Positions 1 through 10,280 of a stretch of DNA of 10,280 nt are shown here, piece after piece. Made by a program: the position numbers and the translations under genes. Position 1 is the stretch's first letter. Each line of letters starts with the position of its first letter. A model generated the notes under the pieces. That model ran no database searches, had not been told where the DNA came from, and saw only the letters and a program-made list of their open reading frames with translations. The DNA comes from a virus (Duplodnaviria > Heunggongvirae > Uroviricota > Caudoviricetes): the IMG/VR virus record IMGVR_UViG_2645728048_000009; one strand, 5' to 3'.

Positions 1-582
1 AACTACCTGGATGATGAAGACGCGGACTGGAGCGCGACCGGGCAGGGACAGAAATCTGCAGGTGATACCAGTTTTACACTGGCCTGGAAACCGGGAGAAG
101 AAGGTCAGAAAGGGCTTATAGGCTGGTTTGAAAGCGGGGATGTGCGGGCCTATAAAATCCGTTTTCCGAATGGCACGGTGGATGTGTTTCGTGGCTGGAT
201 CAGCAGTATCGGTAAGGCAGTGACGGCGAAAGAAGTGATCACCCGAACAGTGAAAGTGACCAACGTGGGCAAACCTTCCGTGGCGGAAGAACGCAGCGAA
301 ATTACGCCGGCCACTGCAATTAAGGTGACACCGACATCCGGTACCGTGGAAAAAGGAAAAACAACCACCCTGACTGTTTCTTTTGAGCCGGAAAGTGCAA
401 CCGACAAGACGTTCAGAGCGGTTTCCGCCGATCCGTCGAAAGCCACCATTAGTGTGAAAGATATGACAATTACGGTAAACGGCGTGGCGACAGGTAAGGT
501 GCAGATCCCTGTGGTGAGCGGAAATGGTCAGTTCGCCGCAGTGGCTGAAGTCACCGTTACTGAAGCGGGCGCTGCAGGGTAA
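1..582 (+). CDS. V: Major tail tube protein V, C-terminal part (5' end lies upstream of the window); includes a C-terminal Ig-like (Big_2-type) domain
   Basis: Frame 1 is open from base 1 to TAA at 580-582, so the track ORF 142..582 is only the part after an internal Met. Position immediately upstream of G with a GGAGG-ATG start for G 14 nt downstream. The Thr/Val/Ser-rich beta-strand-like C-terminus (approx. 300-570) is typical of the Ig-like decoration domain of lambda gpV. Assignment by synteny and recall of lambda. Confidence 0.8.
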
Positions 583-595
583 ACGGAGGTAATAC

Positions 596-1027
596 ATGTT
601 TCTGAAAACAGAACAATTTGAATATAACGGTGTGTCCGTCACGCTTTCCGAGCTGTCTGCGCTGCAGCGTATTGAGCATCTTGCCCTCCTGAAACGGCGT
701 GCAGAACAGGCAGAATCCAGCGGCAACCTGCAGGTAAGCGTGGAAGATCTCGTCAGAACCGGCGCGTTTCTGGTGGCGATGTCCCTGTGGCATAACCATC
801 CGCAGAAAACGGCATCACCGTCAATGAATGAGGCTGTGATGCAGATCGAACAGGAGGTGCTCACCACCTGGCCTGCGGATGCCATTGCCCGGGCGGAAGA
901 TGTGGTGTTGCGTCTGTCCGGGATGAGCGGGGCTGTTCATGCGGATACTGACAGCACCGAAGTGGCGAAAAATAACGCACTGACTGATGATGATTTTTCT
1001 GCGGGAAAGTCTTCGACGGCGAGCTGA
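596..1027 (+). CDS. G: Tail assembly chaperone G
   Basis: ATG at 596 preceded by GGAGG (585-589); 143 codons ending TGA 1025-1027; lies between V and the tape measure gene; contains the G GGA AAG slippery heptamer near its 3' end. Confidence 0.9.
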   Translation: MFLKTEQFEYNGVSVTLSELSALQRIEHLALLKRRAEQAESSGNLQVSVEDLVRTGAFLVAMSLWHNHPQKTASPSMNEAVMQIEQEVLTTWPADAIARAEDVVLRLSGMSGAVHADTDSTEVAKNNALTDDDFSAGKSSTAS

Positions 1028-1467
1028 ATTTTGCCCTCAGACTGGCGCGTGAGATGGGGAGGCCTGACTGGCGCGCCATGCTTGCCGGGATGACATCCAC
1101 CGAATATGCCGACTGGCGACATTTTTACCGTACGCATTATTTTCACGATACCCAACTGGATATGCATTTTTCCGGGCTGACGTACGCCGTACTCAGCCTG
1201 TTTTTTTGCGATCCGGATATGCATCCCTCTGATTTCAGTCTGCTTGCCCCCCGGCGTGAGGAAGCGCAGACGGAGATGCCGGATGAGGAAAAAATGCTGA
1301 TGCAGAAAGCGGCAGGACTTGCCGGAGGCGTACGGTTTGGTGGGGACGGAGGGCGTGAGATTTTATCGTCTGCGGATGTGGCGGATGTCAGCGAGGATGA
1401 TGTCGCATTAATGATGGCTTCAGCGGGGATTCCGGGAGGTGTGAGATATGTCCCAGCCGGTTGGTGA
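596..1467 (+). CDS. T: Tail assembly chaperone G-T fusion made by -1 programmed ribosomal frameshift at 1003-1009 (T frame read from 1009 to TGA 1465-1467)
   Basis: Heptamer G GGA AAG sits in the G reading frame (codons gcG GGA AAG at 1001-1009). The -1 frame is open from there to 1467 and ends 20 nt inside the start of H. This is the conserved G/G-T arrangement upstream of tape measure genes. The track ORF 1054..1467 is the T frame, which has no plausible independent start. Confidence 0.8.
1003..1009 (+). other. -1 programmed ribosomal frameshift slippery site (G GGA AAG)
   Basis: Exact X XXY YYZ heptamer in the correct phase of G, 6 codons before the G stop, with the -1 frame open downstream; same heptamer as the lambda G-T frameshift site. 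Confidence 0.8.
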
Positions 1468-4009
1468 TCTTGTTATTGACCTGAGTCTGGATGCGGTCCG
1501 TTTCGATGAGCAGATGAGCCGGGTAAGGCGTCATTTTTCCGGACTGGAGACTGACGCCAGAAAAACCGCCGGTGTCGTTGAGCAGAACCTGAGTCGTCAG
1601 GCGCTGGCTGCACAAAAAGCCGGGATTTCCGTCGGGCAGTATAAAGCGGCCATGCGAACCCTGCCCGCACAGTTTACGGATATCGCCACGCAGCTTGCCG
1701 GTGGTCAGAATCCCTGGCTGATCCTGCTGCAACAGGGCGGTCAGGTGAAGGACTCCTTCGGCGGGATGATCCCCATGTTCAGGGGACTTGCCGGTGCGAT
1801 CACCCTGCCGATGGTGGGGGCCACCTCGCTGGCGGTGGCGACCGGTGCGCTGGCGTATGCCTGGTATCAGGGCAACTCAACCCTGTCCGATTTCAACAAA
1901 ACGCTGGTCCTTTCCGGCAATCAGGCGGGACTGACGGCAGATCGTATTCTGGCCCTGTCCAGAGCCGGGCAGGCGGCAGGGCTGACGTTTAACCAGACCA
2001 GCGAGTCACTGACGGCGCTGGTGAATGCCGGTGTGCGTGGTGGTGAGCAGTTTGAGGCGATCAGCCAGAGTGTGGCGCGTTTCTCCTCTGCATCCGGCGT
2101 GGAGGTGGACAAGGTCGCTGAAGCCTTCGGGAAGCTGACCACAGACCCGACGTCGGGACTGACAGCGATGGCACGTCAGTTCCATAACGTGACGGCGGAG
2201 CAGATTGCGTATGTTGCTCAGTTGCAGCGTTCCGGAGATGAAGCCGGGGCATTGCAGGCGGCGAACGAGGCCGCAACGAAAGGGTTTGATGACCAGACCC
2301 GCCGCCTGAAAGAGAACATGGGCACGCTGGAAACCTGGGCAGACAGGACAGCACGGGCATTCAAATCCATGTGGGATGCGGTGCTGGATATTGGTCGTCC
2401 TGATACCGCGCAGGAGATGCTGATTAAGGCAGAGGCCGCGTTTAAGAAAGCGGACGATATCTGGAATCTGCGCAAGGATGATTATTTTGTTAACGATGAA
2501 GCGCGGGCGCGTTACTGGGATGATCGTGAAAAGGCCCGTCTTGCGCTTGAAGCCGCCCGAAAGAAGGCTGAGCAGCAGAGTCAACAGGACAAAAATGCGC
2601 AGCAGCAGAGCGATACCGAAGCGTCACGGCTGAAATATACCGAAGAGGCGCAGAAGGCTTACGAACGCCTGCAGACGCCGCTGGAGAAATATACCGCCCG
2701 TCAGGAAGAACTGAATAAGGCACTGAAAGACGGGAAAATCCTGCAGGCAGATTACAACACGCTGATGGCGGCGGCGAAAAAGGATTATGAAGCGACGCTG
2801 AAAAAGCCGAAACAGTCCGGCGTGAAGGTGTCTGCGGGCGATCGTCAGGAAGACAGTGCTCATGCTGCCCTGCTGACGCTTCAGGCAGAACTCCGGACGC
2901 TGGAGAAGCATGCCGGAGCAAATGAGAAAATCAGCCAGCAGCGCCGGGATTTGTGGAAGGCGGAGAGTCAGTTCGCGGTACTGGAGGAGGCGGCGCAACG
3001 TCGCCAGCTGTCTGCACAGGAGAAATCCCTGCTGGCGCATAAAGATGAGACGCTGGAGTACAAACGCCAGCTGGCTGCACTTGGCGACAAGGTTACGTAT
3101 CAGGAGCGCCTGAACGCGCTGGCGCAGCAGGCGGATAAATTCGCACAGCAGCAACGGGCAAAACGGGCCGCCATTGATGCGAAAAGCCGGGGGCTGACTG
3201 ACCGGCAGGCAGAACGGGAAGCCACGGAACAGCGCCTGAAGGAACAGTATGGCGATAATCCGCTGGCGCTGAATAACGTCATGTCAGAGCAGAAAAAGAC
3301 CTGGGCGGCTGAAGACCAGCTTCGCGGGAGCTGGATGGCAGGCCTGAAGTCCGGCTGGAGTGAGTGGGAAGAGAGCGCCACGGACAGTATGTCGCAGGTA
3401 AAAAGTGCAGCCACGCAGACCTTTGATGGTATTGCACAGAATATGGCGGCGATGCTGACCGGCAGTGAGCAGAACTGGCGCAGCTTCACCCGTTCCGTGC
3501 TGTCCATGATGACAGAAATTCTGCTTAAGCAGGCAATGGTGGGGATTGTCGGGAGTATCGGCAGCGCCATTGGCGGGGCTGTTGGTGGCGGCGCATCCGC
3601 GTCAGGCGGTACAGCCATTCAGGCAGCTGCGGCGAAATTCCATTTTGCGACCGGGGGATTTACGGGAACCGGCGGCAAATATGAGCCAGCGGGGATTGTT
3701 CACCGTGGTGAGTTTGTCTTCACGAAGGAGGCAACCAGCCGGATTGGCGTGGGGAATCTTTACCGGCTGATGCGCGGCTATGCCACCGGCGGTTATGTCG
3801 GTACACCGGGCAGCATGGCAGACAGCCGGTCGCAGGCGTCCGGGACGTTTGAGCAGAATAACCATGTGGTGATTAACAACGACGGCACGAACGGGCAGAT
3901 TGGACCACAGGCGCTGAAGGCGGTGTATGACATGGCCCGCAAGGGTGCCCGTGATGAAATTCAGACACAGATGCGTGATGGTGGCCTGTTCTCCGGAGGT
4001 GGACGATGA
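1448..4009 (+). CDS. H: Tail tape measure protein H
   Basis: 853-aa ORF; ATG 1448 preceded by GGAGG (1435-1439). Long central A/Q/E/K/R-rich predicted coiled-coil region, a Gly-rich hydrophobic segment near the C-terminus (approx. 3530-3680), position directly after G-T. Length equals lambda gpH as I recall it. Confidence 0.95.
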   Translation: MSQPVGDLVIDLSLDAVRFDEQMSRVRRHFSGLETDARKTAGVVEQNLSRQALAAQKAGISVGQYKAAMRTLPAQFTDIATQLAGGQNPWLILLQQGGQVKDSFGGMIPMFRGLAGAITLPMVGATSLAVATGALAYAWYQGNSTLSDFNKTLVLSGNQAGLTADRILALSRAGQAAGLTFNQTSESLTALVNAGVRGGEQFEAISQSVARFSSASGVEVDKVAEAFGKLTTDPTSGLTAMARQFHNVTAEQIAYVAQLQRSGDEAGALQAANEAATKGFDDQTRRLKENMGTLETWADRTARAFKSMWDAVLDIGRPDTAQEMLIKAEAAFKKADDIWNLRKDDYFVNDEARARYWDDREKARLALEAARKKAEQQSQQDKNAQQQSDTEASRLKYTEEAQKAYERLQTPLEKYTARQEELNKALKDGKILQADYNTLMAAAKKDYEATLKKPKQSGVKVSAGDRQEDSAHAALLTLQAELRTLEKHAGANEKISQQRRDLWKAESQFAVLEEAAQRRQLSAQEKSLLAHKDETLEYKRQLAALGDKVTYQERLNALAQQADKFAQQQRAKRAAIDAKSRGLTDRQAEREATEQRLKEQYGDNPLALNNVMSEQKKTWAAEDQLRGSWMAGLKSGWSEWEESATDSMSQVKSAATQTFDGIAQNMAAMLTGSEQNWRSFTRSVLSMMTEILLKQAMVGIVGSIGSAIGGAVGGGASASGGTAIQAAAAKFHFATGGFTGTGGKYEPAGIVHRGEFVFTKEATSRIGVGNLYRLMRGYATGGYVGTPGSMADSRSQASGTFEQNNHVVINNDGTNGQIGPQALKAVYDMARKGARDEIQTQMRDGGLFSGGGR

Positions 4010-4335
4010 AAACCTTCCGCTGGAAAGTGAAACCCGGGATGGATGTGACATCGGCTCCTTCCGTCAGGGAGGTGCGCTTTGGTGATGGCTATTCCCAGCG
4101 TGCGCCTGCCGGGCTGAACGCTGACCTGAAAACGTACAGCGTGACGCTGTCTGTCTCCCGTGAGGAGGCCACGGCGCTGGAGTCGTTTCTGGCTGAGCAC
4201 GGGGGCTGGAAGGCCTTTCTGTGGACGCCGCCTTATGGTTACAGGCAGATAAAGGTGACCTGCGCAAAATGGTCGTCGCAGGTCAGTATGCTGCGTGTTG
4301 AGTTCAGCGCAGAGTTTAAACAGGTGGTGAACTGA
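4006..4335 (+). CDS. M: Tail tip assembly protein M
   Basis: 109-aa ORF; ATG overlaps the H stop (ATGA at 4006-4009); GGAGG at 3995-3999; synteny H-M-L. Confidence 0.9.
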   Translation: MKTFRWKVKPGMDVTSAPSVREVRFGDGYSQRAPAGLNADLKTYSVTLSVSREEATALESFLAEHGGWKAFLWTPPYGYRQIKVTCAKWSSQVSMLRVEFSAEFKQVVN

Positions 4336-5033
4336 TGCAGGATATCCGGCAGGAAACACTGAATGAATGCACCCGTGCGGAGCAGTCGGCCAGCGTGGTG
4401 CTCTGGGAAATCGACCTGACAGAGGTCGGTGGAGAACGTTATTTTTTCTGTAATGAGCAGAACGAAAAAGGTGAGCCGGTCACCTGGCAGGGGCGACAGT
4501 ATCAGCCGTATCCCATTCAGGGGAGCGGTTTTGAACTGAATGGCAAAGGCACCAGTACGCGCCCCACGCTGACGGTTTCTAACCTGTACGGTATGGTCAC
4601 CGGGATGGCGGAAGATATGCAGAGTCTGGTCGGCGGAACGGTGGTCCGGCGTAAGGTTTACGCCCGTTTTCTGGATGCGGTGAACTTCGTCAACGGAAAC
4701 AGTTACGCCGATCCGGAGCAGGAGGTGATCAGCCGCTGGCGCATCGAGCAGTGCAGCGAACTGAGCGCGGTGAGTGCCTCCTTTGTACTGTCCACGCCGA
4801 CGGAAACGGATGGCGCTGTTTTTCCGGGACGTATCATGCTGGCCAACACCTGCACCTGGACCTATCGCGGTGACGAGTGCGGTTATAACGGTCCGGCTGT
4901 CGCGGATGAATATGACCAGCCGACGTCCGATATCACGAAGGATAAATGCAGCAAATGCCTGAGCGGCTGTAAGTTCCGCAATAACGTCGGCAACTTTGGC
5001 GGCTTCCTTTCCATTAACAAACTTTCGCAGTAA
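4335..5033 (+). CDS. L: Tail tip protein L (C-terminal Cys cluster, probable Fe-S binding)
   Basis: 232-aa ORF; start overlaps the M stop (TGATG at 4333-4337); cysteine cluster CTWTYRGDECGYNG...CSKCLSGC encoded at about 4850-4970; synteny. Confidence 0.9.
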   Translation: MQDIRQETLNECTRAEQSASVVLWEIDLTEVGGERYFFCNEQNEKGEPVTWQGRQYQPYPIQGSGFELNGKGTSTRPTLTVSNLYGMVTGMAEDMQSLVGGTVVRRKVYARFLDAVNFVNGNSYADPEQEVISRWRIEQCSELSAVSASFVLSTPTETDGAVFPGRIMLANTCTWTYRGDECGYNGPAVADEYDQPTSDITKDKCSKCLSGCKFRNNVGNFGGFLSINKLSQ

Positions 5034-5037
5034 TCCC

Positions 5038-5781
5038 ATGACAGAGACAGAATCAGCGATTCTGGCGCACGCCCGGCGATGTGCGCCAGCGGAGTCGTGC
5101 GGCTTCGTGGTGAGAACGCCGGAGGGGGAAAGATATTTTCCCTGCGTGAATATCTCCGGTGAGCCGGAGGAGTATTTCCGGATGTCGCCGGAGGACTGGC
5201 TGCAGGCAGAAATGCAGGGTGAGATTGTGGCGCTGGTCCACAGCCACCCCGGTGGTCTGCCCTGGCTGAGTGAGGCTGACCGGCGGCTGCAGGTGCAGAG
5301 TGATTTGCCGTGGTGGCTGGTCTGCCGGGGGGCGATTCATAAATTCCGCTGTGTGCCGCATCTCACCGGGCGGCGCTTTGAGCACGGGGTGACGGACTGT
5401 TACACGCTGTTCCGGGACGCTTACCATCTGGCGGGGATTGAGATGCCGGATTTTCATCGTGAGGATGACTGGTGGCGTCACGGTCAGAATCTCTATCTGG
5501 ATAATCTGGAGGCAACGGGGCTGTATCAGGTGCCGTTGTCAGCGGCGCAGCCGGGCGATGTGCTGCTGTGCTGTTTTGGTTCATCGGTGCCGAATCATGC
5601 CGCCATTTACTGTGGCGACGGCGAGCTGCTGCACCATATTCCTGAACAACTGAGTAAACGAGAGAGGTACACCGACAAATGGCAGCGACGCACACACTCC
5701 CTCTGGCGTCACCGGGCATGGCACGCATCTGCCTTTACGGGGATTTACAACGATTTGGCCGCCGCATCGACCTTCGTGTGA
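5038..5781 (+). CDS. K: Tail tip assembly protein K with MPN/JAMM-like and NlpC/P60-like domains; longest ORF shown, alternative in-frame start at 5182 (199 aa)
   Basis: ATG 5038 lies 4 nt after the L stop with no Shine-Dalgarno. In-frame ATG 5182 is preceded by GGAGG (5166-5170). JAMM-type motif H-S-H-x7-S-x2-D encoded near 5239-5280. NlpC/P60-like Cys (TDCY, about 5398) and His (VPNHAAIY, about 5595). Stop TGA 5779-5781, overlapping I by 103 nt in another frame. The track's 4996 start is upstream of the L stop and is rejected. Confidence 0.8.
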   Translation: MTETESAILAHARRCAPAESCGFVVRTPEGERYFPCVNISGEPEEYFRMSPEDWLQAEMQGEIVALVHSHPGGLPWLSEADRRLQVQSDLPWWLVCRGAIHKFRCVPHLTGRRFEHGVTDCYTLFRDAYHLAGIEMPDFHREDDWWRHGQNLYLDNLEATGLYQVPLSAAQPGDVLLCCFGSSVPNHAAIYCGDGELLHHIPEQLSKRERYTDKWQRRTHSLWRHRAWHASAFTGIYNDLAAASTFV

Positions 5782-6350
5782 AAACGGGGGCTGAAGCCAT
5801 CCGCGCACTGGCCACACAGCTCCCGGCGTTTCGTCAGAAACTGAGCGACGGCTGGTATCAGGTACGGATTGCCGGGCGGGACGTCAGCACGTCCGGGTTA
5901 ACGGCGCAGTTACATGAGACTCTGCCTGATGGCGCTGTGATTCATATTGTTCCCAGAGTCGCCGGGGCCAAGTCAGGTGGCGTATTCCAGATTGTCCTGG
6001 GAGCAGCCGCCATTGCCGGATCATTCTTTACTGCCGGAGCCACCCTTGCAGCGTGGGGGGCAGCCATTGGGGCCGGTGGTATGACCGGCATCCTGTTTTC
6101 TCTCGGTGCCAGTATGGTGCTCGGTGGTGTGGCCCAGATGCTGGCACCGAAAGCCAGAACTCCCCGTACACAGACAACGGATAACGGCAAACAAAACACC
6201 TATTTCTCCTCACTGGATAACATGGTTGCCCAAGGCAATGTTCTGCCCGTTCTGTACGGTGAAATGCGCGTGGGATCACGTGTGGTTTCTCAGGAGATCA
6301 GCACGGCAGACGAAGGGGACGGTGGTCAGGTTGTGGTGATTGGTCGCTGA
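5679..6350 (+). CDS. I: Tail tip assembly protein I (N-terminal ubiquitin-like region ending in Gly-Gly, then a hydrophobic Gly/Ala-rich C-terminal half)
   Basis: 223-aa ORF; ATG 5679 with GAGAGG upstream (5662-5667); Gly-Gly at codons 100-101 (5976-5981) followed by a hydrophobic A/G/L-rich stretch; synteny K-I-J. Confidence 0.9.
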   Translation: MAATHTLPLASPGMARICLYGDLQRFGRRIDLRVKTGAEAIRALATQLPAFRQKLSDGWYQVRIAGRDVSTSGLTAQLHETLPDGAVIHIVPRVAGAKSGGVFQIVLGAAAIAGSFFTAGATLAAWGAAIGAGGMTGILFSLGASMVLGGVAQMLAPKARTPRTQTTDNGKQNTYFSSLDNMVAQGNVLPVLYGEMRVGSRVVSQEISTADEGDGGQVVVIGR

Positions 6351-6368
6351 TGCAAAATGTTTTATGTG

Positions 6369-6388
6369 AAACCGCCTGCGGGCGGTTT
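6369..6388 (+). other. Stem-loop in the I-J intergenic spacer (8-bp stem AAACCGCC/GGCGGTTT, loop TGCG)
   Basis: Perfect inverted repeat read directly from the sequence, followed by a T-rich stretch (TTTTGTCATTT). Function unknown: possibly an RNA-stabilising or attenuating hairpin between I and J. Confidence 0.35.
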
Positions 6389-6410
6389 TGTCATTTATGG
6401 AGCGTGAGGA

Positions 6411-9400
6411 ATGGGTAAAGGAAGCAGTAAGGGGCATACCCCGCGCGAAGCGAAGGACAACCTGAAGTCCACGCAGTTGCTGAGTGTGATCGATGCCATC
6501 AGCGAAGGGCCGGTTGAAGGTCCGGTAGATGGATTAAAAAGCGTGCTGCTGAACAGTACGCCGGTGCTGGACAGTGAGGGGAATACCAACATCTCCGGCG
6601 TCACGGTGGTGTTCCGGGCAGGTGAGCAGGAGCAGACACCGCCGGAGGGATTTGAATCCTCCGGCTCCGAGACGGTGCTGGGTACGGAAGTGAAATATGA
6701 CACGCCGATCACCCGCACCATCACGTCGGCAAACATCGACCGACTGCGCCTGACCTTCGGCGTGCAGGCACTGGTGGAAACCACCTCAAAGGGGGACAGG
6801 AATCCATCGGAAGTCCGCCTGCTGGTTCAGATACAACGTAACGGTGGCTGGGTGACGGAAAAAGACATCACCATTAAGGGCAAAACCACTTCACAGTATC
6901 TGGCCTCGGTGGTGGTGGATAACCTGCCGCCGCGCCCGTTCAATATCCGGATGCGCAGGATGACGCCGGACAGCACCACAGACCAGCTGCAGAACAAAAC
7001 GCTCTGGTCGTCATACACCGAAATCATCGATGTGAAACAGGGCTACCCGAACACGGCACTGGTCGGCGTGCAGGTGGACTCGGAGCAGTTCGGCAGCCAG
7101 CAGGTGAGCCGTAATTATCATCTTCGCGGGCGCATTCTGCAGGTGCCGTCGAACTATAACCCGCAGACGCGGCAATACAGCGGTATCTGGGACGGAACGT
7201 TAAAACCGGCATACAGCAACAACACGGCCTGGTGTCTGTGGGATATGCTGACCCACCCGCGCTACGGCATGGGGAAACGTCTTGGTGCGGCGGATGTGGA
7301 TAAATGGGCGCTGTATGTCATCGGCCAGTACTGCGACCAGTCGGTGCCGGACGGCTTTGGCGGCACGGAGCCGCGCATTACCTGTAATGCGTACCTGACC
7401 ACACAGCGCAAGGCGTGGGATGTGCTCAGTGATTTCTGCTCGGCGATGCGCTGTATGCCGGTATGGAACGGGCAGACGCTGACGTTCGTGCAGGACCGAC
7501 CATCAGATAAGGTGTGGACCTATAACCGCAGTAATGTGGTGATGCCGGATGATGGTGCGCCGTTCCGCTACAGCTTCAGCGCCCTGAAGGACCGCCATAA
7601 TGCCGTTGAGGTGAACTGGATTGACCCGAATAACGGCTGGGAGACGGCGACAGAGCTTGTTGAAGATACGCAGGCCATTGCCCGTTACGGTCGTAATGTC
7701 ACGAAGATGGATGCCTTTGGTTGTACCAGCCGGGGGCAGGCACACCGAGCCGGGCTGTGGCTGATTAAAACGGAACTGCTGGAAACGCAGACCGTGGATT
7801 TCAGCGTGGGCGCAGAAGGGCTTCGCCATGTGCCGGGCGATGTCATTGAAATCTGTGATGATGACTATGCCGGTATCAGCACCGGCGGGCGCGTGCTGGC
7901 GGTAAACAGCCAGACCCGGACGCTGACGCTCGACCGTGAAATCACGCTGCCATCCTCCGGCACCACGCTGATAAGCCTGGTTGACGGGAAGGGTAATCCG
8001 GTCAGCGTGGAGGTCCAGTCCGTCACCGACGGCGTGAAGGTGAAAGTGAGCCGTGTTCCTGACGGCGTTGCTGAATACAGCGTGTGGGGGCTGAAGTTGC
8101 CGACGTTGCGCCAGCGCCTGTTCCGCTGCGTGAGTATCCGTGAGAACGACGACGGCACGTATGCCATCACCGCCGTGCAGCATGTACCCGAAAAAGAAGC
8201 CATCGTGGATAACGGGGCGCACTTTGACGGCGACCAGAGCGGCACGGTGAATGGTGTCACGCCGCCAGCGGTGCAGCACCTGACTGCCGAAGTCACCGCA
8301 GACAGCGGGGAATATCAGGTGCTGGCGCGCTGGGACACGCCGAAGGTGGTGAAGGGCGTGAGCTTTATGCTTCGCCTGACCGTGGCAGCGGATGACGGCA
8401 GTGAGCGGCTGGTCAGCACGGCCCGGACGACGGAAACCACATACCGCTTCACGCAACTGGCGCCGGGGAACTACAGGCTGACAGTCCGGGCGGTAAATGC
8501 GTGGGGGCAGCAGGGCGATCCGGCGTCGGTATCGTTCCGGATTGCCGCACCGGCAGCACCGTCGCGGATTGAGCTGACACCGGGCTATTTTCAGATAACA
8601 GCGGTCCCGCGTCTTGCGGTGTATGACCCGACGGTACAGTTTGAGTTCTGGTTTTCGGAAACGCGGATTACCGATATCAGGCAGGTTGAAACCACAGCCC
8701 GCTACCTTGGCACGGGGCTGTACTGGATAGCCGCCAGTATCAATATCAAACCGGGCCATGATTATTACTTTTATATCCGCAGTGTGAACACCGTTGGCAA
8801 ATCGGCATTTGTGGAGGCTGTTGGCCAGCCGAGTGATGATGCATCCGGCTATCTGGATTTTTTCAAAGGAGAGATAGGGAAAACCCATCTGGCTCAGGAG
8901 TTGTGGACTCAGATTGATAACGGTCAGCTTGCGCCTGACCTGGCGGAAATCAGAACGTCCATCACGGATGTCAGTAATGAAATCACGCAGACCGTCAATA
9001 AGAAACTGGAAGACCAGAGTGCAGCGATCCAGCAGATACAGAAGGTTCAGGTTGATACAAATAATAATCTGAACAGCATGTGGGCTGTGAAGCTGCAACA
9101 GATGAAGGACGGACGCCTTTATATTGCGGGTATCGGTGCCGGTATTGAGAATACGCCAGCAGGAATGCAGAGTCAGGTGCTGCTGGCGGCAGACAGGATT
9201 GCGATGATTAATCCTGCGAATGGCAACACAAAGCCGATGTTTGTTGGTCAGGGCGATCAGATATTCATGAATGAAGTGTTCCTGAAATATCTGACGGCTC
9301 CCACCATTACCAGTGGCGGCAATCCTCCGGCATTTTCCCTGACATCAGACGGAAAGCTGACCGCTAAAAATGCGGATATCAGTGGCAGTGTGAATGCGAA

Positions 9401-9890
9401 CTCCGGGACGCTCAACAACGTCACGATTAACGAGAACTGTCGGGTTCTGGGAAAACTGTCCGCGAACCAGATTGAAGGCGATCTCGTTAAAACAGTGGGC
9501 AAAGCTTTCCCCCGGGACTCCCGTGCACCGGAACGGTGGCCATCAGGGACCATTACCGTCAGGGTTTATGACGATCAGCCGTTTGACCGGCAGATTGTTA
9601 TTCCGGCGGTGGCATTCAGCGGCGCTAAACATGAGAGAGAGCATACTGATATTTACTCCTCATGCCGTCTGATAGTGCGGAAAAACGGTGCTGAAATTTA
9701 TAACCGTACCGCGCTGGATAATACGCTGATTTACAGTGGCGTTATTGATATGCCTGCCGGTCACGGTCACATGACGCTGGAGTTTTCGGTGTCAGCATGG
9801 CTGGTGAATAACTGGTATCCCACAGCAAGTATCAGCGATTTGCTGGTTGTGGTGATGAAGAAAGCCACCGCAGGCATCAGTATCAGCTGA
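6411..9890 (+). CDS. J: Central tail fibre / host-specificity protein J (tail tip; FN3-like repeats; divergent C-terminal receptor-binding region)
   Basis: 1159-aa ORF; ATG 6411 preceded by GAGGA (6405-6409). FN3-like segment encoded around 8250-8560. The N-terminal approx. 800 aa match my recollection of lambda J closely, whereas the last approx. 340 aa (from about 8870) diverge and the DNA there has visibly lower GC. Confidence 0.95.
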
Positions 9891-9908
9891 ATTTTATAAC
9901 CCATATAC

Positions 9909-9933
9909 GGGCGCCAGAAATGGCGCCTTTTTT
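9909..9933 (+). terminator. Rho-independent terminator after J
   Basis: GC stem GGCGCC (9910-9915), loop AGAAAT, GGCGCC (9922-9927), followed immediately by TTTTTT (9928-9933); located 20 nt after the J stop. Confidence 0.8.
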
Positions 9934-9957
9934 ATTGCAGAAAAGCGAGAGGTAATT

Positions 9958-10280
9958 ATGCGTAAATTATGTGCTGTTATTCTGTCCGCAGTAGTCTGGC
10001 TGGTTGCCGCTGGTACGCCAGCGAGCGCAGCAGAGCATCAGTCCACACTAAGCGCCGGGTATCTTCAGACCCATACTGATATGCCAGGCAGCGATGACCT
10101 GAAGGGCATTAACGTGAAATACCGTTATGAATTTACGGACACGCTGGGGCTGGTGACGTCATTCAGCTATGCAGGAGACAGGAATCGCCAGCTTACCCGT
10201 TACAGCGATACCCGCTGGCATGAAGATTCCGTGCGTAACCGCTGGTTCAGCGTGATGGCGGGGCCGTCTGTACGCGTGAA
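9958..10280 (+). CDS. lom: Lom / Ail-family outer membrane protein, 5' part (continues past the window end)
   Basis: ATG 9958 preceded by GAGAGG (9945-9950). Open frame to the window edge (107 codons, no stop), which is why it is absent from the ORF track. N-terminal signal-peptide-like sequence [24 protein letters not shown] followed by beta-barrel-like alternating motifs ([23 protein letters not shown]) that match my recollection of lambda Lom. Position downstream of J as in lambda. Confidence 0.85.

Follow-up and report, generated by a model that had tools for sequence, protein, structure and literature searches.

Organisation of the locus and domain map of J

The window, by which we mean the whole 10,280-bp stretch of DNA that was analysed, is colinear with positions 9128-18002 of phage lambda at 92% identity. 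Gene J, encoding the tip attachment protein or central tail fibre, occupies 6411..9890 on the plus strand (the strand of all features described here) and was read from the open reading frame list and its translation of 1159 amino acids plus stop. Open reading frames, gene calls and Pfam families place it in a tail operon after H-M-L-K-I and before lom, and the order I-J-lom matches that of lambda. Six Pfam models for J exceed their gathering thresholds and are arranged in the lambda order: FNIII-A_GpJ (residues 86-207), Phage-tail_3 (330-498), Ig_J (610-714), Ig_J_second (716-818), Phage_Tail_Tip (872-1000) and Ig_GpJ_C (1029-1159). A scan of the region between J and lom returned an intrinsic-terminator-like hairpin at 9909..9934, with an 8-bp stem that contains six G-C pairs and is followed by the T run TTTTTTATT. 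This hairpin is conserved in an alignment of phage 21, 1717 and VT1-Sakai, and is annotated as a terminator in phage 21. The 5' part of lom, an Ail/Lom outer-membrane protein gene (Pfam Ail_Lom, E = 1.4e-64), follows at 9958..10280 and is cut by the contig end.

Domain names are those used for the lambda protein (PMC11101478). The hub domains and the first FNIII/Ig domain form a lambda-like part (6411..8585), with a GC content of 0.60; in 150-nt windows its DNA is 94-99% identical to that of lambda. It is followed by a block at 8603..9287 that matches the J gene of the Stx2-converting phage 1717 at every informative site. This block (residues 732-959) begins in FNIII-2, most of which it covers, and takes in the alpha-helical shaft together with the greater part of the beta-prism. 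The shaft (residues 819-871; 8865..9023), corresponding to a lambda helix of residues 841-861 (PMC11101478), has no Pfam model and lies in the gap between Ig_J_second and Phage_Tail_Tip. Pairwise and multiple alignments locate in it a net insertion of 28 residues with respect to lambda (8916..9008), aligned as residues 836-856 and 860-866 and equal in length to four heptads, which is common to phage 21, 1717, VT1-Sakai and PhiR55_1. An AF2 single-sequence model of residues 790-1159 gave a mean pLDDT of 38, too low for use beyond a weak hint of a long helix at residues ~812-891. The base of the beta-prism is formed by a conserved island (residues 953-1003; 9267..9419), and the protein ends with the receptor-binding domain (residues 1004-1159; 9420..9887), which includes the Ig-like Ig_GpJ_C and is of the type found in O157 prophages and in gpJ 1A2, with OmpC as its predicted receptor.

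Divergence from lambda J

Up to residue ~800, J is ~97% identical to lambda J, and each 40-residue block of the pairwise alignment holds 35-40 identities. An earlier, sequence-only reading of this DNA had described the 5' part as near-identical to lambda J, and the protein as 1159 residues long compared to 1132 in lambda; both statements hold. Past residue 800, successive blocks contain 22, 5 (with 23 gap columns), 19 and 29 identities out of 40, rising to 39 in the island and dropping to 20, 20, 18 and 12 thereafter. By domain, identity to lambda amounts to 11/53 in the shaft, 43/81 in the upper beta-prism and 47/51 in the island. Over the last 340 residues it is about 49%, which bears out the claim of a C-terminal region that diverges while keeping its homology and is far under the 95% set as the limit for that claim. 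The two conserved stretches quoted in support of it also persist, both of them at residues 961-1001.

The receptor-binding domain and its predicted receptor

When compared to lambda J residues 977-1132, the LamB-binding Ig-like domain with its receptor-contact loops, the receptor-binding domain retains 68 of 157 positions (43%) and carries an indel, and it thus does not group with the lambda type by similarity. Identity is 105/161 (65%) with phage 21, and 154-155 of 156 residues are shared with PhiR55_1, VT1-Sakai, Stx2a_EH0430 and PhiR5_1.

A characterised protein of this type is gpJ 1A2, an engineered chimera. Its sequence, published as DNA, was taken from a PDF read by machine, a noisy copy in which 10 positions are frameshifted. 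When frameshifts are tolerated in the alignment to this copy, 171 of 180 codon-aligned residues downstream of the ...KNADISG motif match the window, most of the mismatches being text-recognition errors; lambda J, aligned to the same copy, yields 93/177. At least three differences are true ones, with S992 replaced by N, HEREH by HEKEH and GISIS by GITIS in 1A2. The three distinctive 1A2 residues match VT1-Sakai, whose domain is itself 154/156 identical to that of the window.

Experimentally, gpJ 1A2 uses OmpC and not LamB (Brodel et al., Nature 2024, PMC11338833). [quoted passage not shown] Delivery reaches 98-99% with the alleles G3 and G5 and ~2% with G1 and G2, which include the K-12 OmpC; the accepted alleles are of the EDL933 type, not the K-12 type (PMC11338833). 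As a point on the source data of that study, the 1A2 values in the panel C sheet of Extended Data Fig. 2 are those of the K-12 OmpC panel, in conflict with the main text and three other sheets.

By analogy with 1A2, the domain in the window most likely binds the trimeric porin OmpC, in EDL933-like rather than K-12 alleles, instead of LamB. A change of receptor with respect to lambda is strongly indicated by a domain that is 43% identical to that of lambda and near-identical to that of the OmpC-using 1A2, and the altered receptor specificity proposed by the sequence-only reading is supported. The one paper identified that mentions the PhiR phages deals with ManYZ and SNIPE and names no receptor in the outer membrane.

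Sequence type does not map one-to-one onto receptor, because the domain of phage 21 is quite unlike that of lambda and LamB is nevertheless its native receptor. On this precedent, the diverged domain might still use LamB, leaving the host range the same and the differences neutral or relevant only to the preference for porin alleles. We consider this unlikely, given that the near-identical 1A2 domain was obtained in the absence of lamB and depends on OmpC in an allele-selective manner, and that the window domain is distant from lambda and, at 65%, also from phage 21.

If OmpC is taken as the probable receptor, small differences in J can still matter, since a single J substitution in phage 21 adds the use of OmpC. 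S992, the arginine of HEREH, the serine of GISIS, or the pairing of an OmpC-type domain with a long shaft might alter the range of OmpC alleles, provide a second receptor or change the coupling between binding and opening. Such effects appear quite improbable; if they were real, the natural J would be functionally distinct from the characterised 1A2 chimera.

Mosaic structure of the 3' part of J

Tables of informative sites were drawn up for three putative parent pairs and gave chi-square P values of 1e-72 to 1e-88, with sharp switches of partner at 8585-8603 and 9287-9311. Between 7891 and 8600 the informative sites side with lambda in 203 cases and with 1717 in 15, and between 8601 and 9270 the counts are 0 and 156. 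Sliding identity was computed against seven phages; for phage 1717 it is 100% in all 60-nt windows between 8607 and 9266, and upstream of the block it is 45-77%, with the exception of one window (97% at 8191-8250). O157-type sequence begins at about 9390-9400 and runs to 9890. The 3' end of J thus consists of at least three pieces, namely the 1717-type block (8603-9287), the conserved island (9287-9400) and the O157-type receptor-binding domain (9400-9890), with block edges at or near domain boundaries. These data demonstrate recombination in J. A recombinational swap had been proposed from 8870 to the stop codon; recombination stands, and the single swap gives way to at least three blocks with different nearest relatives.

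The second switch falls at residues ~960-967 (lambda ~933-940). As expected of an independently recombining specificity module whose breakpoint lies close to lambda residue 960, this region and the remainder of J have different nearest relatives; J residues 960-1132 have been described as modular (Maddamsetti et al. 2018, PMC6646904). In the phage database the modules assort independently: Stx2a phages have a receptor-binding domain at 98% identity next to a middle segment at only 70%, and in phage 1717 the pattern is inverted. The lambda G964 fusion point used in published engineering corresponds to G991 of the window, within the island, which is likely to act both as a crossover site and as a structural adaptor for the exchange of receptor-binding domains.

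Comparison with individual J proteins places the window among known architectures. Lambda gpJ (NP_040600; 8IYK, 8XCG-8XCK) has the same gene position, Pfam order and prism-base island, and presumably the same trigger mechanism, but its shaft is 28 residues shorter and its receptor is LamB. The 1A2 chimera carries essentially the same receptor-binding domain as the window downstream of lambda G964, joined at the same conserved island. It differs in having the short shaft and the prism of lambda upstream of the fusion and in being recoded at the DNA level, and its receptor is proven whereas that of the window is predicted. In VT1-Sakai, Stx2a_EH0430, PhiR5_1 and JLK-2012, the receptor-binding domain (154-155/156) and the downstream terminator are the same, whereas the hub and FNIII-1 come from another J lineage (~60% amino acid identity); in EH0430 and PhiR5_1 the shaft differs as well (32-33/53). 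The lambda-like hub, the long shaft (52/53) and the prism (78/81) are common to phage 21 and the window, and the A8 gpJ 713 structure (PDB 9WCA/9WCB) aligns with the whole C-terminal 294 residues (E = 2e-126). The receptor-binding domain of phage 21 and the A8 gpJ chimera is, however, of a different type, ~65% identical and containing additional loops; LamB is the native receptor of phage 21, and A8 uses OmpC, including the K-12 allele.

The window is an entire contig of a draft short-read assembly, and in the complete E. coli genomes that match it the number of such tail regions has a median of 2 and a maximum of 15. As the junctions lie in conserved sequence, reads from co-resident lambdoid prophages could have been joined at the conserved islands, yielding a J that no real phage possesses. 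Against this, J of the prophage in the closed E. coli chromosome NZ_CP074756 has the same arrangement, ungapped and 98% identical over 7891-10280. The isolated phage PhiR55_1 (PV340571) has the same full-length architecture, with a DNA identity of 96.3% across the whole of J (shaft 53/53, receptor-binding domain 154/156), and closed genomes of O157:H7 and O55:H7 contain positions 8600-9890 at 99.1% identity. J of both PhiR55_1 and NZ_CP074756 differs from that of the window by scattered substitutions. An assembly chimera is accordingly an improbable explanation, although, the window being a whole short-read contig, assembly across repeated prophages might in principle have altered the precise junctions. 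Upstream of J, PhiR55_1 has a tape-measure gene of 3057 nt compared to 2562 nt in the window and differs in other tail genes, and the best full-length match of the window among complete E. coli genomes is 96.1%.

Substitutions and indels under selection are known to concentrate in the specificity region of J (PMC6646904), and laboratory lambda and phage 21 switch receptor by a few point mutations, but divergence in place by point mutation and diversifying selection is highly improbable here and already contradicted by identities that jump between ~60% and 100% with differing partners, by a 685-nt block without any difference from phage 1717 between flanks of 45-77%, by the lack of lambda-like sites in 8601-9270, and by 4 against 155 sites in the receptor-binding domain for the 1717/EH0430 pair.

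Base composition

GC content is 0.590 over 6411-8869 and 0.505 over 8870-9890, and no 1021-nt window inside 1-8600 has a value under 0.534. Maximum likelihood places the change-point at 8585 (0.601 to 0.505), with a likelihood ratio of 30.5 compared to a shuffle 99th percentile of 11.3. The drop described by the sequence-only reading is thus significant, but its boundary of ~8870 was misplaced: the shift begins ~285 nt upstream of it, where the sequence is still ~90% identical to lambda. In distal J, GC3 falls from 0.73 to 0.56-0.58 and GC is about 0.50.

Lambda J changes composition at the very same nucleotide (2175 of J), with a weaker drop, from 0.593 to 0.532 (likelihood ratio 12.0). Low GC is therefore a shared property of distal J modules and, contrary to what had been suggested, does not mark a swap relative to lambda. 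Low GC was also rejected as a sign of foreign origin on account of this common change-point. Recent acquisition of the region from a host or phage group of lower GC, beyond the lambdoid gene pool, would fit the significant change-point and the fall in GC3; it is scarcely credible in view of the lambda change-point and of the relatives, 93-100% identical, that every segment has in E. coli lambdoid phages and prophages. A GC content of about 0.50 is, moreover, simply the E. coli average, and the remaining tail operon is the unusually GC-rich part.

Proposed model and implications

Taken together, we consider it very probable that this J belongs to a lambda-like E. coli prophage and has a 3' third that is a mosaic of cassettes, in which an OmpC-type receptor-binding domain most likely replaces LamB binding. 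The 3' third has been built by homologous recombination from cassettes circulating among lambdoid prophages. The first is the lambda-type hub with the first FNIII domain, the second the FNIII-2, long helical shaft and beta-prism that match phage 1717, and the third, past the conserved crossover island, the Ig-like receptor-binding domain of the O157:H7 prophage type. Trimeric J would form the tail-tip hub and central fibre, and by analogy with the trigger mechanism derived from lambda structures (PMC11101478), binding of OmpC may cause the three receptor-binding domains to spread, the prism to twist and the helical shaft to flip. The FNIII strings would then be released and the hub opened, so that DNA could be ejected.

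This mosaicism is real but ordinary, well-documented phage mosaicism and carries no novelty: exchange of the J specificity region as a module has been on record since 2018 (PMC6646904), and the OmpC specificity of the domain type has been published. The value is practical rather than conceptual, in that the host-recognition module of a prophage can be annotated with confidence as OmpC-type, probably unable to use K-12 OmpC, and that this J illustrates clearly how recombination occurs at domain boundaries. The receptor-binding cassette is among the commonest in E. coli prophages, Shiga-toxin phages included, so its receptor assignment matters for predicting the strains able to acquire phages of this kind and for the design of lambda-based delivery particles. 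At 95% identity or more, the domain is present in more than 2,300 complete E. coli replicons.

Domain organization of J

J occupies positions 6411–9890 of the plus strand and is translated into 1159 amino acids. The window is an entire short-read draft contig of 10,280 bp (JHSN01000103.1 of NCBI assembly GCA_001265995.1), both ends of which are assembly breaks. Its genes belong to the tail of a lambda-like prophage and run, by the ORF list and gene calls, in the order V (3′ end only), G, T, H, M, L, K, I, J and lom (5′ part only). The complete lambda J set of Pfam domains is present, comprising FNIII-A (amino acids 86–207), Phage-tail_3 (330–498), Ig_J (610–714), Ig_J_second (716–818), Phage_Tail_Tip (872–1000) and Ig_GpJ_C (1029–1159). 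Residues 819–871 form a gap without a Pfam model, which matches the α-helical shaft of lambda tail structures (PMC11101478). A structure model placed a helix at residues ~812–891 with low confidence (pLDDT 38), and is the sole structural support generated for the helicity of the shaft.

When J was compared with lambda J, all blocks of 40 residues up to residue 800 contained 35–40 identities, and those that follow fell to 22/40, 5/40 (with 23 gap columns), 19/40 and 29/40. An island at residues 961–1000 is identical at 39 of 40 positions, and the blocks from there to the stop codon retain 12–20 identities each. Expressed by domain, the values are 92/103 for FNIII-2, 11/53 for the helical shaft, 43/81 for the upper prism, 47/51 for the island and 68/157 for the receptor-binding domain. 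The sequence-only reading, which had described a proximal part nearly identical to lambda and a departing distal part, is borne out by this collapse, and the two conserved peptides it cited are both found in J. The lengths it gave (1159 residues, and 1132 in lambda) are also correct; the gap arises from a net insertion of 28 residues (four heptads) in the shaft (836–856 and 860–866), with lambda having one additional residue near the C-terminus.

Mosaic structure of the J 3′ end

The 3′ end of J is a multi-piece mosaic. Positions 7891–10280 were aligned with lambda, phage 21, PhiR55_1, Stx2 phage 1717, VT1-Sakai, Stx2a_EH0430 and PhiR5_1, and scored by identity in 60-nt windows and by counts of informative sites. 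The first block (7891–8585) resembles lambda and phage 21, with 203 lambda-like against 15 1717-like informative sites, and shares 45–77% identity with the 1717/O157 J lineage, one window excepted (8191–8250, 97% to 1717). The partner changes at 8585/8603. All 60-nt windows of 8607–9266 are 100% identical to phage 1717, and positions 8601–9270 hold 156 1717-like and no lambda-like informative sites. A second switch follows at 9287/9311, and from ~9390 to the stop codon and terminator identity is 97–100% to VT1-Sakai, EH0430, PhiR5_1 and PhiR55_1, compared with 39–88% to 1717 and 29–68% to lambda. Contingency tests on parent pairs gave P values of 1e-72 to 1e-88. These partner switches support the recombinational origin proposed earlier for this region, not as a single swap starting at 8870 but as three blocks. 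The junctions coincide or nearly coincide with domain edges: the first is close to where FNIII-2 begins, and the second and third flank the island at the base of the β-prism.

The two distal modules of J assort independently. Database searches revealed many Stx2a phages in which the receptor-binding domain is 98% alike and the middle segment just ~70%, with phage 1717 showing the opposite pattern. In phage 21, the Lambda_ev phages and mEp460, J is common at 95% to nucleotide ~3100 and divergent beyond.

Tail regions of this type occur in several copies per E. coli genome (median 2, maximum 15), and in a contig built from short reads a chimera of them could have given rise to a mosaic J. The same architecture, however, recurs ungapped in three independent sources: the closed chromosome NZ_CP074756 (98% identity), the isolated phage PhiR55_1 (96.3% over the full J) and closed O157:H7 and O55:H7 genomes (99.1% for 8600–9890). 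The mosaic is thus very unlikely to be an assembly artefact.

Base composition

The GC content is 0.590 in 6411–8869 and 0.505 in 8870–9890, and none of the equal-sized windows across 1–8600 has a value below 0.534. A single change-point model located the shift at 8585 (0.601 to 0.505), with a likelihood ratio of 30.5 against 11.3 for the 99th percentile of shuffles. The drop noted from the sequence is thus real, but its boundary lies ~285 nt upstream of the proposed 8870. Most of the shift is accounted for by GC3, which falls from 0.73 to 0.56–0.58. Its onset coincides with the beginning of FNIII-2, a region in which the protein continues to resemble lambda J. The change-point of lambda J falls on the identical nucleotide (0.593 to 0.532, likelihood ratio 12.0), so that the lower GC is a family-wide property of distal J, and low GC as the mark of an exchange setting this phage apart from lambda is ruled out.

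A 531-residue antisense ORF (7503–9098, minus strand) is contained in the GC-rich portion of J, with its end approximately at the GC drop; in all likelihood it reflects the composition of high-GC coding sequence and is no gene.

Receptor specificity

Brödel et al. (Nature 2024, PMC11338833) fused natural C-termini at lambda residue 964, equivalent to G991 within the island, to generate lambda gpJ chimeras. The DNA of two of these, 1A2 and A8, was taken from the supplementary file as machine-read text in which bases had been dropped, and we therefore used a frameshift-tolerant protein-to-DNA alignment. For residues 970–1159, 171 of 180 codon-aligned positions match 1A2; the alignment contains 10 frameshift positions, and the mismatches mostly adjoin text-reading errors. 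The corresponding counts are 93/177 for lambda J against the same sequence and 124/176 for our J against A8. The credible differences from 1A2 are S992 (N in 1A2), HEREH (HEKEH) and GISIS (GITIS). VT1-Sakai, whose receptor-binding domain is identical to ours at 154 of 156 positions, has the 1A2 version at all three sites.

The screen that yielded 1A2 used a lamB deletion recipient. When OmpC allele G3 or G5 was supplied to a lamB ompC double deletion strain, 1A2 delivered DNA to 98–99% of cells, as it did in strains with EDL933 or TN03 OmpC (PMC11338833). Alleles G1 and G2, among them K-12 OmpC, gave ~2%, and wild-type MG1655 gave ~5% (PMC11338833). The best-supported reading is that J targets OmpC and discriminates against the K-12 form. 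For our allele this is an inference, on two grounds. It differs from 1A2 by a few residues, and in phage 21 one J substitution suffices to gain OmpC use (PMC11336670). In addition, one source-data sheet conflicts: for OmpC-EDL933, panel C of Extended Data Fig. 2 gives 1A2 and A8 the very values that panel B gives for OmpC-MG1655, at odds with the article text and with the source data behind Fig. 1b and Extended Data Figs 1 and 8 (PMC11338833). These values were probably copied into the deposited sheet by mistake. A changed receptor specificity, as suggested earlier, is strongly indicated.

PhiR55_1 (PV340571) and PhiR5_1 (PV340545), with receptor-binding domains 99.2% identical to ours, both have E. 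coli C as recorded host, and PhiR11_1 of the same series, with a lambda-type J, is listed for K-12 MG1655. Anecdotally, these records agree with the reported inability of 1A2 to use K-12 OmpC.

In lambda, cryo-EM has shown three Ig-like receptor-binding domains touching the porin extracellular loops through four bottom loops; on binding, the domains spread, the β-prism twists, and the helical shaft flips and partly refolds into strands, whereupon the FNIII strings are released and the hub opens (PMC11101478). Porin binding by our J would probably trigger the same sequence, with the island forming the last prism layers above the receptor-binding domain. Conservation of the island may plausibly reflect two roles, as a structural adaptor accepting varied receptor-binding domains and as a stretch of DNA identity hosting crossovers. 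Phage 21 has an equally long shaft and uses LamB, and shaft length is therefore not tied to receptor choice.

Relation to known J proteins

A search of solved structures matched lambda gpJ (8IYK, 8XCG–8XCK) and an ‘A8 gpJ 713’ entry (9WCA/9WCB), spanning the full C-terminal 294 residues. Maddamsetti et al. (2018, PMC6646904) studied 1,207 natural homologues of J and described residues 960–1132 as a module recombining independently of the remaining J. In E. coli, this receptor-binding domain ranks with the most frequent: of 20,395 complete replicons, at least 2,319 have it at ≥95% identity, and O157:H7 and O55:H7 include matches of 100%. This J is an ordinary case of a described phenomenon with a characterised allele, and as such already known; the useful refinements are the three blocks, the junctions at domain boundaries, the OmpC-type domain and the GC shift common to lambda.

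Further features of the window

Positions 1–1770 (the 3′ end of V, genes G and T, and the initial ~320 nt of H) are just 60–87% identical to lambda, and identity is 97–100% from ~1770 on; this is a second mosaic junction, within the tape-measure gene. The heptamer GGGAAAG, at which the programmed -1 frameshift of lambda G-T occurs, is found at 1003–1009, near the end of the G ORF (596–1027) and upstream of the T ORF (1054–1467), and suggests that the G/G-T chaperone frameshift is conserved. A patch in gene M (4020–4319) is 89–91% identical to lambda between flanks of 95–100%, possibly as a result of gene conversion over a short tract.

At the start of lom, ~150 nt (9953–10108) are 100% identical to PhiR55_1 and NZ_CP074756, compared with 30–83% to lambda, 1717, VT1-Sakai, EH0430 and PhiR5_1 (below 75% except for VT1-Sakai). 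From 10109, identity to 1717 and EH0430 returns to 94–98%, and this switch indicates that lom is also mosaic. NZ_CP074756 is the closest of the closed genomes, and its corresponding prophage (locus positions 16623–21080) has nleG and nleA, which encode type III effectors, directly downstream of the side tail fibre genes, and a gpU split by an IS30/IS3 insertion.
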